A stretch of 63,583 nucleotides of DNA, filler included, from a bacterium (GCA_024278215.1; 5 parts of 5 records of this genome joined end to end with filler, not necessarily neighbours in it), one strand, 5' to 3'; counted from the whole stretch's first letter, positions 59,343 through 62,183 are shown. Notes: a model not told the origin generated them from the letters alone. Made by a program: numbers and translations.

Positions 59343-60032
59343 TTATAAAACCATTCTCGCTATTTTACTGCTTCTGATAAATCCATCGTACTTGTCCTTT
59401 AATATTTCAAAGCCATAATACTTATAATTATCTTTTCTGTTTAACATCTCTCTCAACACACTTCCAGCAATCTTTTTCTTCAAAAGGGGGTGCTCGACTT
59501 TATCATCGAACTTTTGCAACGCATCAAGCATCATCGCAGCCGCCCTCGCATCCGCACCCTTCTCATTTTTATGCAGATTGTACATTCTGTCAATTTCCCT
59601 TATGCGCTCGTCGAGTTTTCGGAATCGTTCAGCGTCTCTCTTAAGCATCAACGCCCTGCTTATGACGCCAGCTCCGGCTTTCTCGCCGTCGCCCATGCCC
59701 CGTCCGATGAACGCCATAGGCTGGAAGTAGTCGCTTCCGCCTTTATAAGCAGCCGATACGGCACGGGCGTAGTCGGACGCATTGTCGAAGTCGAGCCCCA
59801 TCTCACGGCAATACCCCCTTACCCGGTTTTCCCGTTCTTCATCTTCGATCTCTTCGGCAAGGCACTTAAAGCGTTCCCACTCTTCACATTCAGGCATGCT
59901 GTTCATGTGTGAGAATACGTAGTCGGTTTTCTCGCTATTGCCGAAAAGTCGATCTTCGATTATGTCTAAACGTTTGTCGATTCCGGCCAGTCTTCCGCCG
60001 AACTCTATTTTTGCGCTGTGTTCCGGATCCAT
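59343..60032 (-). CDS. Hypothetical protein with N-terminal phage-scaffold-tail-like motif
   Basis: RVRGYCREMGLDFDNASDYARAVS matches the C-terminus of 60297-62183; GAGGA RBS. Confidence 0.7.
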   Translation of the reverse strand: MDPEHSAKIEFGGRLAGIDKRLDIIEDRLFGNSEKTDYVFSHMNSMPECEEWERFKCLAEEIEDEERENRVRGYCREMGLDFDNASDYARAVSAAYKGGSDYFQPMAFIGRGMGDGEKAGAGVISRALMLKRDAERFRKLDERIREIDRMYNLHKNEKGADARAAAMMLDALQKFDDKVEHPLLKKKIAGSVLREMLNRKDNYKYYGFEILKDKYDGFIRSSKIARMVL

Positions 60033-60141
60033 ATTACATCATCCTCTCATAATTTGAAATATGCTTTCGCCATATTGCGCTATAGCAACTAAACCGGGTT
60101 TTGGGGTCAGACATAGAATAATGAACAGATTTGCCCATTCA

Positions 60142-60276
60142 AAAAATGGGGACAAAAATAGGGACAGTCACCGTTTTATCCTCCCGCTTTCTTGTCTTTT
60201 TCTGCCCCTTTCCTGGATTTGGATTTCTTGGCAACTTTTGTTTTTTGGGGCTTGCCGTGTGGAAGCGGGCACCTTG
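60142..60276 (-). mobile_element. 3' end fragment of RAYT-type element with GGTGACTGTCCC REP
   Basis: 60232-60276 is 43/45 identical to 58092-58136; translates PLPHGKPQKTKVAKKSKSRKG...GG* followed by ggtgactgtccctatttttgtccccatttt. Confidence 0.65.
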
Positions 60277-60296
60277 TTTACGGAAACACAAGGGAA

Positions 60297-62183
60297 TCAA
60301 CAGCGTCCATTAAGCGGCAGGGGAATAACGTATTCGCCGACGGTGGAGGCGGCACGTGCGTAGGCGGAGGCGTCGTCGGGGTCGAGGCCGCGCGTGGCGC
60401 ACCAGGCGGCGATGCGTTTGTCAAGGTCTGTGCTGTCGCCGGGGTCGCCGTGGCCGTTCGCGCCGCCCTGCCCTGTTTTCTGTGCGCCGTATTCACTCAT
60501 CGCGGGGTGTGCACCGAGCGAGTCGATGAAGGCCATGAAGTCGACTGTGGAGACGGTGCGCGAAACGGCGTTGTCGCCGGAGCTGTCGCCGCCGGGCGCG
60601 GCGTATTCGCTTGCGGCGGGCGCGTCGCCGTCGAGCAGCGCGAGCATGTCGAGTATGACGCTGTGGTATGCGGGCGGGATAAACCGGCCACGTGTTTCAA
60701 TGAATCGCCGCCTCTGTTTCTCCCTCAGCTTGCTTTCGCGGGTGCGGTATTCTTCGAGTTCGGCGACAGTTGCGTCGAGTCGTTGGGCAGTTTCTTTCAA
60801 CTGTTGTCTGAATTCTTCTTCTGCGTTTTCGACTTCCGTTTCTGCTTTTGTTTCTGCTTCGTTGTCGATTTTTAACTTTTCATCCTGTTCCTTTTCCGTG
60901 TCGTTTTCGCTATCGTCATCAGATTCGGATTTTGGATCGGCCGGTTCTGAAACCTTGCCTTCCGCTGCATTATTCACCGCGAGCGCACCTGATTCTTCAT
61001 CGACAGCGTTCTTTTCTTCCAGCTTGTTTTTCTTTGCTTCGATCTTTTCATCTTTCTTTTCACCTTTTTCCGCAGGCGCCGAGCCATAAGCATATTCGGC
61101 GACGCCGGATATGCTCACGCCCGTGTCGTCCGCGTCGTAGAGATAGGCGACTGTTTCGGGCGAGAGTTCATAGAGAGCGCTGATGTCGGCGAGCGAGCCG
61201 ATGGCGGGCAGTCGGGCGCCGAGCAGGGCGAGGCCCGCGGCGACATGTTTGTAGACTCTGCCGTCTGCGGCGTCCCTGAAGTCGTGCAGCACTTCGAGGC
61301 TCCGTTTCTTGTATGCGTTGCTTTTTATCAACTCGAATATTTTTTTCGGCACATCCTTGAGGTCTGCGAGCAGACTGCCGCCCCTGACGCGCAGGTTCGC
61401 CAGCCAGCCCGCGGCGGGGAGTCCGTCGCTTTTCAGCAACGGCTGTTCCTTCTCGTGGCCGAGTTTCACAGGCGCCTCGAAGCGGCCCTTGAGGTTGTTG
61501 TAAGCGTCGGCCATCTCGCGCAGGTCGTTTTCCGTGTAGTTTATCGTCCTGCCGGTGCTGTCGGTCCATTCGCCGGTCCTGAATATCTCGACGTTTTCGA
61601 TGTCGAAAGTTTCGTGCGCGGCTGCCGGTGTTGTGCTCGTGGTGGCGTCCGGTATTGTTTCCCGCGCTGCTTCATGTGCGGCGGCGTCTGCGACACTATG
61701 CGAGCTTTCCGCCGTGTCGATCCGGTCTTTCTCTGCAAATATATAGGATACGCCCAGGCCCTCGCCGGGTTCTTCACGCGTTGCGGCTTTGTCGTCATAT
61801 TCCGTCAGGACATAATAGAACCCATCGGCGTGTTCCTCGACCGTGTGGTCTTCATCCAGCGGCAGGTCCGTTTCCGTTTCGATCCATTCTTCCGCTTCGC
61901 CCGCGTTTCTGAAATGCTTTTTCGCGAATTTTATTGCAACACGCGAGTATCCGGGGCCGGAGTCGTTCTTTACGTCTTCACCGGATTCGCTCCAGAGACC
62001 GTCGGCGAGTTCGTGAGTGCGGCGGAACCGCGCCACCGCGACGCCCCACGGATTCCTGACAGTATCATCGTGCGCAAAACTTTCCGCCCATTGCGCTATC
62101 ATCTTGGCCTGATCGAGCGTAAGCGGCGCGCCGCCTATTTTCCTGAGTCTTTCCGGTACTTCATCAATTGATTGCCACGACAT
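60297..62183 (-). CDS. Phage-like prohead protease/scaffold protein with N-terminal ChaB-like domain
   Basis: ChaB-like MSWQSIDEVPE...AVARFRR...W; protease-like VEIFRTGEW, APVKLGH, PAAGW, YKKRS.E, LALLGA..PAI..L; acidic linker and coiled-coil scaffold tail; GGAGGT RBS before 62183. Confidence 0.8.
   Translation of the reverse strand: MSWQSIDEVPERLRKIGGAPLTLDQAKMIAQWAESFAHDDTVRNPWGVAVARFRRTHELADGLWSESGEDVKNDSGPGYSRVAIKFAKKHFRNAGEAEEWIETETDLPLDEDHTVEEHADGFYYVLTEYDDKAATREEPGEGLGVSYIFAEKDRIDTAESSHSVADAAAHEAARETIPDATTSTTPAAAHETFDIENVEIFRTGEWTDSTGRTINYTENDLREMADAYNNLKGRFEAPVKLGHEKEQPLLKSDGLPAAGWLANLRVRGGSLLADLKDVPKKIFELIKSNAYKKRSLEVLHDFRDAADGRVYKHVAAGLALLGARLPAIGSLADISALYELSPETVAYLYDADDTGVSISGVAEYAYGSAPAEKGEKKDEKIEAKKNKLEEKNAVDEESGALAVNNAAEGKVSEPADPKSESDDDSENDTEKEQDEKLKIDNEAETKAETEVENAEEEFRQQLKETAQRLDATVAELEEYRTRESKLREKQRRRFIETRGRFIPPAYHSVILDMLALLDGDAPAASEYAAPGGDSSGDNAVSRTVSTVDFMAFIDSLGAHPAMSEYGAQKTGQGGANGHGDPGDSTDLDKRIAAWCATRGLDPDDASAYARAASTVGEYVIPLPLNGRC

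Follow-up and report, generated by a model that had tools for sequence, protein, structure and literature searches.

The stretch of DNA considered here (the window, 63,583 nucleotides (nt) from the bacterial assembly GCA_024278215.1) is a pseudomolecule in which four runs of N around the six-frame stop linker TTAATTAATTAA connect five contigs, with linkers at 16865, 31121, 37435 and 57971, the last of them within the N-run 57927-58026. Hence, gene neighborhoods across the linker points are artificial, and the housekeeping genes below 57927, belonging to another contig, say nothing on the context of the genes in question. The latter all reside on the last piece (58027-63583, 5557 nt), the minus strand of which holds three open reading frames (ORFs): a gene for a 654-amino-acid (aa) protease/scaffold protein, a gene for a 229-aa protein sharing a short module with the scaffold's tail, and a gene for a 237-aa putative partner. 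The contig ends at 58027, about 0.5 kb beyond the two-gene cassette formed by the latter two.

62399 (start), plus strand: divergent membrane-protein gene, from ORF reading
60297-62261, minus strand: Mu-I-like head maturation protease plus scaffolding region, 654 aa counted from the first ATG, assigned by phrog_976 and homologs
61146-61628, minus strand: protease domain, residues ~212-372 of the 654-aa protein, from phrog_3894 and tblastn
60312-60434, minus strand: scaffold copy of the module, residues 610-650, from hhalign, with the core RIAAWCATRGLDPDDASAYARAAS at 60345-60416
59343-60032, minus strand: free-standing 229-aa protein with N-terminal helix, module and class-4 helical domain, from ORF reading and relatives
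59709-59843, minus strand: module copy of the 229-aa protein, residues 64-108, from hhalign, with the core RVRGYCREMGLDFDNASDYARAVS at 59754-59825
58565-59278, minus strand: 237-aa partner with N-terminal membrane anchor and soluble part, from BLASTP and hydropathy

The 654-aa protein aligns with phrog_976 over residues 212-624 (E 1.2e-35) and with phrog_3894 over residues 217-371 (E 9e-32). Its likely true start is M27 at 62183, where the closest homologs begin and which is also the end coordinate given in the initial annotation. Capsid maturation protease/scaffolding genes of Gordonia and Arthrobacter phages are matched by the protease domain in tblastn, and all matches of the protein in the phage collection are limited to this domain (residues ~217-390), while the C-terminal half is acidic, coiled-coil and scaffold-like. 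The family PF10123 (Mu-like_Pro) is not matched at E-values up to 1, and the homolog P0013 reaches 19.1 bits with it, under the cut-off of 25.2. Altogether, 13 homologs were found, and the motif described below is present in all 14 members of this scaffold family, with P0014 being truncated inside it. In front of the protease domain, the 654-aa protein has an extra region of about 185 residues (~27-210; 61630-62183) that it has in common only with its three closest homologs P0003-P0005, all of them short-tailed. This region gave neither a Pfam nor a PHROG match; its start may resemble ChaB-like proteins.

Comparison of the 654-aa and 229-aa proteins by BLASTP gives 17 identities in 42 positions (E 3e-6, single comparison), and hhalign of the 229-aa family (four sequences) against the scaffold family (14 sequences) aligns 41 columns at a probability of 96.6% and an E-value of 5.9e-10. 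Likewise, a hidden Markov model (HMM) of the 47-position motif scores exactly twice when the 63.6-kb window is translated in all six frames, once in the 229-aa protein (70.3 bits) and once in the scaffold (68.4 bits). The two strings from which the initial annotation had proposed a scaffold motif copied into the downstream protein were located, the scaffold's at residues 616-639 and that of the 229-aa protein at residues 70-93, with 13 of 24 positions shared. Their placement needs amendment, though. The motif lies near the C-terminus of the scaffold as claimed, but not at its exact end, with 15 residues (TVGEYVIPLPLNGRC) coming after the core. These residues belong to the shared stretch as well, and the shared unit is the scaffold's whole last ~45 residues, including the trailing 'EY..P'. 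In the 229-aa protein, the motif was said to form the N-terminus and is internal instead, after about 60 residues, and the weaker match suggested further upstream (DFMAFIDSL versus DYVFSHMNSM) is reached by neither BLASTP nor hhalign. A candidate second occurrence of the motif in the 229-aa protein (residues ~139-166) was discarded at an HMM score of -0.1.

An AlphaFold2 (AF2) model of the 229-aa protein, based on its four-member family, predicts a helix at residues 47-78, a loop at 79-84 and a second helix at 85-96, with predicted local distance difference test (pLDDT) values of 62-80. With moderate confidence, the shared stretch can therefore be described as a predicted helix-loop-helix of about 45 residues. 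One Cys, one Tyr and one Ala are invariant in all 16 aligned motif segments, and the invariant Cys together with the conserved 'EY..P' marks the motif junction. At the DNA level, the motif-coding stretches of scaffold and free-standing gene from the same genome are only 51-52% identical, with exact runs of at most 6-7 nt (window and genome G001), yet these residues are invariant, which argues for a module kept for its role in the protein; conservation thus acts at the protein level. Within the 229-aa family, too, no other part is conserved as well as the motif. A search with the motif profile against PDB sequences gave a TALE repeat as the best match (E 0.43), which was taken as chance, and comparing the 16 motif segments with Pfam returned three families with one member each at E-values of 0.019-0.11, i.e., noise. 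Accordingly, a relationship to SAP/HeH-type helix-extended-helix DNA-binding motifs, considered for a likeness in the spacing of hydrophobic and basic residues, was dropped, as it is backed by none of the Pfam matches.

The 229-aa protein starts with a helix predicted at low confidence (~1-60), which is followed by the module (64-108) and a helical C-terminal domain (~119-229). Mean pLDDT of the model is 61.7, rising to 80-90 over residues ~131-180 of the C-terminal domain. As had been proposed, no relationship to the scaffold could be detected for the part that follows the motif (residues ~119-229). Searching 1.84 billion representative sequences with HMMER revealed three relatives of 220-229 aa (P0016-P0018; E 6e-29 to 4e-17), which are 28-32% identical to it across almost their entire length and have kept the motif. 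A word-based search returned only the protein itself, and a repeat of the profile search only the known members. No match was obtained by tblastn against 50,697 phage records at E-values up to 1 or by scanning viral contigs with the 229-aa family. At the structural level, Foldseek found nothing in the PDB at E-values of 0.001 or below (best 0.9, generic helical bundles), and the ESM Atlas gave no usable match for the model.

Immediately downstream, the 237-aa ORF encodes a protein with a hydrophobic segment at residues ~8-35 (KD19 2.88), and basic residues before this anchor suggest that the soluble part would face the periplasm. The protein matches the 207-aa product of L007:1529-2152 (BLASTP, E 3e-13), the gene following the 229-aa homolog in that locus. 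Since both genes adjoin likewise in L007, the 229-aa and 237-aa genes form a conserved cassette. The AF2 model of the 237-aa partner (mean pLDDT 48.9) was too poor for a structure search. Shine-Dalgarno-like sequences precede both cassette genes, that of the 229-aa gene being GAGAGGA.

A fortuitous resemblance, or the decay of a partially duplicated 3' end of the scaffold gene, is what one might suspect from a shared stretch that is short and rich in Ala and Asp. This is contradicted by the E-values of 3e-6 and 5.9e-10, the latter from hhalign, by three full-length relatives that keep the motif at 28-32% identity, and by the gene pair conserved in L007; the 229-aa ORF is not the decayed copy that the initial annotation had named as an objection to its own proposal. 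We therefore consider this explanation highly improbable.

The cassette differs from its surroundings in composition, with a G+C content of 0.461 in 58001-60000 compared to 0.558 in 60001-62000, and is bracketed by repeats:

60232-60276, unstranded: 45-nt direct repeat, copy 1, between the scaffold and 229-aa genes
58092-58136, unstranded: 45-nt direct repeat, copy 2, beyond the 237-aa gene, 96% identical to copy 1
60154-60177, unstranded: 24-nt inverted repeat, arm 1, 88% complementary to 58336-58359
58336-58359, unstranded: 24-nt inverted repeat, arm 2, bracketing the two-gene cassette together with arm 1

The direct repeats lie outside the inverted repeat. The 45-nt repeat has two matches in the window against zero expected and is absent from the 43 loci compared. 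Repeats and lower G+C count in favor of cassette mobility. Abutting the inverted-repeat arm downstream of the 237-aa gene, a tandem repeat with the 10-nt unit CCATTATTCA in 6.9 copies extends over 58352-58419.

For finding further proteins with the module, the motif profile was searched in 12 genomes of the relatives' phylum, eight of which gave matches. As anticipated by the initial annotation, free-standing proteins combining the motif with different C-terminal parts were found. BLASTP restricted to the after-motif parts sorts them and the scaffolds into four classes, without any cross-class match at an E-value of 1e-3. That the motif serves as the tail of phage scaffolds is also borne out: in L043 (genome G007), a scaffold of 380 aa stops 10 residues past the motif core, and directly downstream come a 146-aa decoration-like gene and then the major capsid gene (phrog_1005 in G007). 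Six scaffolds are bare-tailed in this sense, with at most 17 residues after the core (window, P0003, P0004, P0005, L001 and L043), whereas the others continue for 93-227 more residues. With 15 residues after its core, the 654-aa protein can be assigned to this short-tailed form. The after-motif parts of classes 1-3 occur both fused to scaffolds and in free-standing proteins, class 4 so far only in the latter.

Class 1: scaffolds P0006, P0007, P0009, P0013 and P0015; free-standing L041, 281 aa, matching P0006, P0009, P0013 and P0015 at E 2e-7 to 2e-6
Class 2: scaffolds P0008 and P0010; free-standing L029, 280 aa, E 9e-12 (8e-12 with the motif included)
Class 3: scaffolds P0011 and P0012; free-standing L042, 199 aa, E 3e-18
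Class 4: free-standing only; 229-aa protein of the window, L007 (= P0017), P0016 and P0018

All free-standing proteins have the same layout of a short N-terminus, the motif and a domain, so that the motif is internal in each of them. An identity of class 4 with class 1 was also considered and rejected: hhalign of the 229-aa family against the class-1 scaffolds aligns the motif alone, and class 4 is for this reason kept distinct.

Two irregular loci were observed among these relatives. In L006 (7592-8947, = G010:C80), the scaffold homolog is cut inside the motif (...NPDNATD, stop) and followed by an unrelated 718-aa gene and ordinary host genes, and the break at the module looks like a deletion or recombination scar. 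In genome G003, a 215-aa protein (L019 1138-1785/L108, G003:C11) has two motif-like repeats that are recognized by the motif HMM at an E-value of 2.8e-7 in the local set and 1.1e-5 per genome. Its gene directly follows a terminase large-subunit gene, with a coiled-coil protein encoded next and a tyrosine-recombinase-like gene 3 kb on, and the element may be satellite-like, using the same module.

Each domain class is accompanied by particular downstream genes. In all five free-standing cases with readable DNA, the product of the next gene has an N-terminal hydrophobic anchor, and all 11 partner proteins examined are anchored, two of them bearing a lipobox and two of 186 aa being polytopic. The 205-aa partner of the free-standing class-2 protein in L029 matches the 204-aa gene product encoded after a class-2 scaffold (E 4e-5). 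The genes following the domains are arranged as listed below, and class 4 is followed by a 237-aa (window) or 207-aa (L007) gene.

L004-type, class 2: 204/207 aa, 186 aa
L002, class 2: 204/207 aa, 186 aa, then 215 and 204 aa without the class-3 domain
L003/L012, class 3: 215 aa, 204 aa, then 207 (+186) aa without the class-2 domain
L005, class 3: 215 aa, 204 aa

Orphan partners are evident from this comparison, with L002 retaining the 215-aa and 204-aa genes and L003/L012 the 207-aa gene (plus the 186-aa gene), each lacking the matching domain. In L005, the 204-aa lipoprotein-like partner (2709-3319) matches in two pieces in different frames, a probable frameshift. The junction is best seen by aligning the DNA of L004 (class 2) and L003 (class 3). 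Identity is 90.5% over the coding sequence that begins with the scaffold gene and runs up to ...AALAALEY, where the module ends. Past this point, 550 nt in L004 and 1968 nt in L003 are non-homologous, with the L003 segment encoding the class-3 domain as well as the 215-aa and 204-aa products, and homology returns at 94.5% in the shared 204/207-aa gene. The fixed junction, the class-linked neighbors and the orphans together give the layout of polymorphic effector/immunity loci, as described for such systems (PMC3482391).

The same features might be explained by recombination cassettes only, comparable to the orphan end-modules of CDI, Rhs and MafB systems, with the motif being a homology patch for exchange with the scaffold gene that has no binding role in the free-standing proteins. 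DNA homology of class-2 and class-3 scaffolds stopping exactly at the motif end would suit this, as would the persistence of orphan partner genes and the position of the window's cassette directly downstream of the scaffold gene, a classic orphan position. However, motif DNA at 51-52% identity with runs of 6-7 nt offers far too little for homologous exchange, and within the 229-aa family the amino-acid motif still shows the strongest conservation. Moreover, start codons and ribosome-binding sites of their own are present in the free-standing genes, the N-terminal helices of their products are conserved, and four of five cassettes are not beside a scaffold gene. Consequently, we regard an origin of the pattern from recombination without a binding function as quite unlikely.

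As to the partner of the module, the capsid protein is a candidate. Capsid genes assigned to phrog_1005 are located 0.1-4.5 kb downstream in L003, L004, L005 and L043, and clusters of the relatives comprise the protease/scaffold, a decoration-like protein, a phage major head protein, a Mu gp36-like adaptor and further structural genes. A complex prediction of the kind that the initial annotation had called for was run for the tail and capsid protein of the relative G007 and lends weak support to capsid binding by the tail: with scaffold residues 305-380, a median score of 0.34 was obtained, compared to 0.00 for the best of three controls, at a partner pLDDT of at least 62 and with at least 94% of contacts in agreement between runs. 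The alignments were custom-made, the one for the capsid protein having a depth of four rows, which is shallow. The mark for this score is reached by 58 of 80 solved complexes and two of 110 mismatches, and at scores of 0.60 or below by seven of the 80 solved complexes plus both passing mismatches. By its location in the minimal scaffold, the motif holds the position of the coat-binding element in the scaffolds of P22 and 80alpha as described in 10.1101/2022.12.13.520362 and PMC5644958. Together, these results weakly suggest that the module may bind the capsid protein.

Alternatively, the module might be a general helix-loop-helix with another constant partner, such as the scaffold itself (self-association), the portal, the prohead protease, for which it would be a recognition or cleavage site releasing the end domain, or DNA. 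Finding it in both proteins would in that case not imply capsid addressing. The invariant Cys and the conserved 'EY..P' at the junction would suit a processing site, and the computed capsid contact is weak. On the other hand, the best of the Pfam matches among the 16 motif segments (HTH_30, 0.019) is of no use, a PDB sequence match below an E-value of 0.4 is likewise lacking, and the correspondence with the coat-binding position in P22 and 80alpha (10.1101/2022.12.13.520362, PMC5644958) is left unaccounted for. Another constant partner thus has a small chance of being the right one.

Taken together, we favor a polymorphic, effector-like system addressed by the scaffold's tail, to which we assign a rough probability of 0.45. 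The module is the C-terminal tail of a lineage-specific Mu-I-like protease/scaffold and serves as a fixed joint to interchangeable C-terminal domains, carried either in cis as an extension of the scaffold or in trans on small proteins made up of a short helical N-terminus, the module and the domain, with each domain class traveling with genes for membrane-anchored or exported proteins. The window presents a bare-tailed scaffold followed by a free-standing class-4 cassette (229 aa plus 237 aa), probably inserted. Docking of the module on the HK97-fold capsid protein, at its inner face, or else on the core of the scaffold would bring whatever is attached into the procapsid, in cis or in trans, and the variable domains and their membrane partners might act as effector/protector pairs swapped by recombination at the module end. 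From the mechanism initially put forward, the reuse of a scaffold tail on other proteins and the variable domains are retained in this model, while the N-terminal position of the motif is given up. The linked membrane-protein genes and the pattern of junction and orphan genes, which give the system its likeness to polymorphic effector/immunity loci, had not been noticed there.

Several observations weigh against this model. First, none of the after-motif domains and partners of any class has a Pfam family above threshold, and no end domain resembles a known toxin or enzyme, which leaves the gene layout as the basis for speaking of 'effector' and 'immunity'. The linkage counts stem from few independent lineages, about two per class, with L004 and L008-L011 being identical sequences. 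Furthermore, none of 64 IMG/VR loci with related protease domains carries the motif at E-values up to 0.01, and the module is confined to one uncultured lineage. Regarding capsid binding, a weak pass such as that of the G007 complex is more often wrong than right unless the interaction is likely beforehand. The variable part is C-terminal to the motif, the opposite of P22 scaffold-fusion cargo, and the capsid-binding element forms the extreme C-terminal end in P22 and 80alpha, while 100-230 residues can follow it here. As a rule, scaffolds exit or are degraded prior to the packaging of DNA, and retention of an attached domain is thus an assumption. As to genomic surroundings, tblastn with the relatives' head genes detected no capsid, decoration or adaptor homolog in the 63.6-kb window, and upstream of the relatives' scaffold genes are host genes, without portal or terminase. 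Four of the five readable free-standing cassettes are away from phage head genes, among chromosomal ones, with flagellar genes around L007, a ClpB-like and other host genes around L029 and likewise non-head genes around L041 and L042. In the draft assembly of G011, two cassettes but no phrog_976 or phrog_1005 match were found.

Head genes are irregularly placed in two of the relatives. In G004, the phage-like cluster (L004/L028, G004:C30) starts beside divergent host genes (MFS transporter, GH20), and a terminase-portal-MuF-like set (terminase, portal and a 281-aa product) is located on L027 (G004:C65), where the contig ends right after it; the head module appears to be split or the assembly broken there. 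The capsid homolog of G001 is present in two halves, G001:C62:6913-7443 and G001:C113:17582-18037, corresponding to profile positions 5-172 and 160-315, the gene being either broken or split by the assembly.

The non-phage chromosomal context of the free-standing cassettes, including those of G011 without detected scaffold or capsid, would be in line with an assembly decoy resembling CpmB, which redirects or poisons capsid assembly in the service of a satellite or of defense, while domain and partner act downstream. A precedent exists in CpmB itself, employing the same helix-and-hook and the same capsid site as the scaffold (PMC5644958), and the motif-like double repeat in the 215-aa protein of G003, beside a terminase gene in a small integrase-bearing element, would also fit. 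However, interference leaves unexplained why the same three classes occur in cis on the phage's own scaffold with the same partner genes, and the motif is internal rather than C-terminal in all free-standing proteins. Besides, the absence of a phage from a draft assembly is weak evidence. We consider a decoy function unlikely, albeit somewhat less so than the recombination and other-partner explanations, and keep to the tail-addressed effector-like system.

Going one step further, the tail might be a natural portable capsid address in this uncultured lineage, with phage or phage-like particles being loaded in cis via the scaffold or in trans via small tagged proteins, delivering interchangeable effectors to other cells, and lysogens or bystanders gathering periplasm-facing protector genes. 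This extension we hold to be doubtful. Polymorphic effector systems are already known for secretion systems and MuF head proteins, while a report on a scaffolding-protein tail as the conserved carrier was not found in the open-access papers searched. If the module is a capsid address, it would provide a natural tag of fewer than 50 residues for loading HK97-fold shells, the proteins that such phages carry into cells would become readable, and the variable gene clusters between scaffold and capsid genes of these prophages would be explained. If the delivery reading holds as well, a new trafficking mode for polymorphic effectors and a natural counterpart of engineered P22 loading would emerge.

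Among known systems, the MuF polymorphic toxins (PMC3482391), exemplified by Bxa of Bacteroides stercoris (PMC11699363), are alike in combining a conserved head-protein part with diverse C-terminal domains, in their linked protective genes and in their association with prophage head modules; packaging of the MuF-fused toxins into phage heads has been predicted (PMC3482391). In the present case, however, the carrier is the tail of a protease/scaffold, and neither MuF (Phage_Mu_F) nor any other Pfam domain was detected in the 654-aa and 229-aa proteins. No known toxin family is matched by the variable domains, the partner proteins have a membrane anchor or are exported instead of being cytoplasmic, and the free-standing forms keep only the module of about 45 residues from the carrier.

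The capsid targeting sequence of T4 is an N-terminal tag of about 10 residues that is removed by the prohead protease. It loads varied internal proteins into the prohead via the scaffold core, and these are ejected into the next host. Here, in contrast, a helix-loop-helix of about 45 residues is homologous to the scaffold's own tail and the domain is C-terminal to it. Cargo peptides of encapsulins are C-terminal and unrelated to the module, although a short peptide directing proteins into an HK97-fold shell is a common principle. An encapsulin-type shell was not found, and the relatives' clusters hold phage head genes.

A further parallel is provided by 80alpha and SaPI1, where scaffold and CpmB have a C-terminal helix-and-hook in common and bind the same capsid site (PMC5644958). 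By analogy, the 229-aa protein would be a small second protein with a copy of the scaffold's capsid-binding C-terminal element, as is CpmB. The latter, however, has its own copy at the C-terminus, is satellite-encoded and redirects capsid size, whereas the copy described here is internal (64-108 of 229), a domain of 110-230 residues comes after it in such proteins, and the gene is found beside the scaffold gene or in the chromosome. CpmB and the module have no sequence relation, which leaves analogy only, and no satellite hallmarks were seen on the 5.6-kb contig.

Finally, cargo fused to truncated P22 scaffold is encapsidated in vivo (PMC9962691), and a minimal coat-binding scaffold fragment thus suffices to carry foreign proteins, much as the module is proposed to do. 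That arrangement is man-made, with the cargo N-terminal to the terminal helix-turn-helix (PMC9962691), while the one described here is natural and has its variable domain C-terminal to the module.

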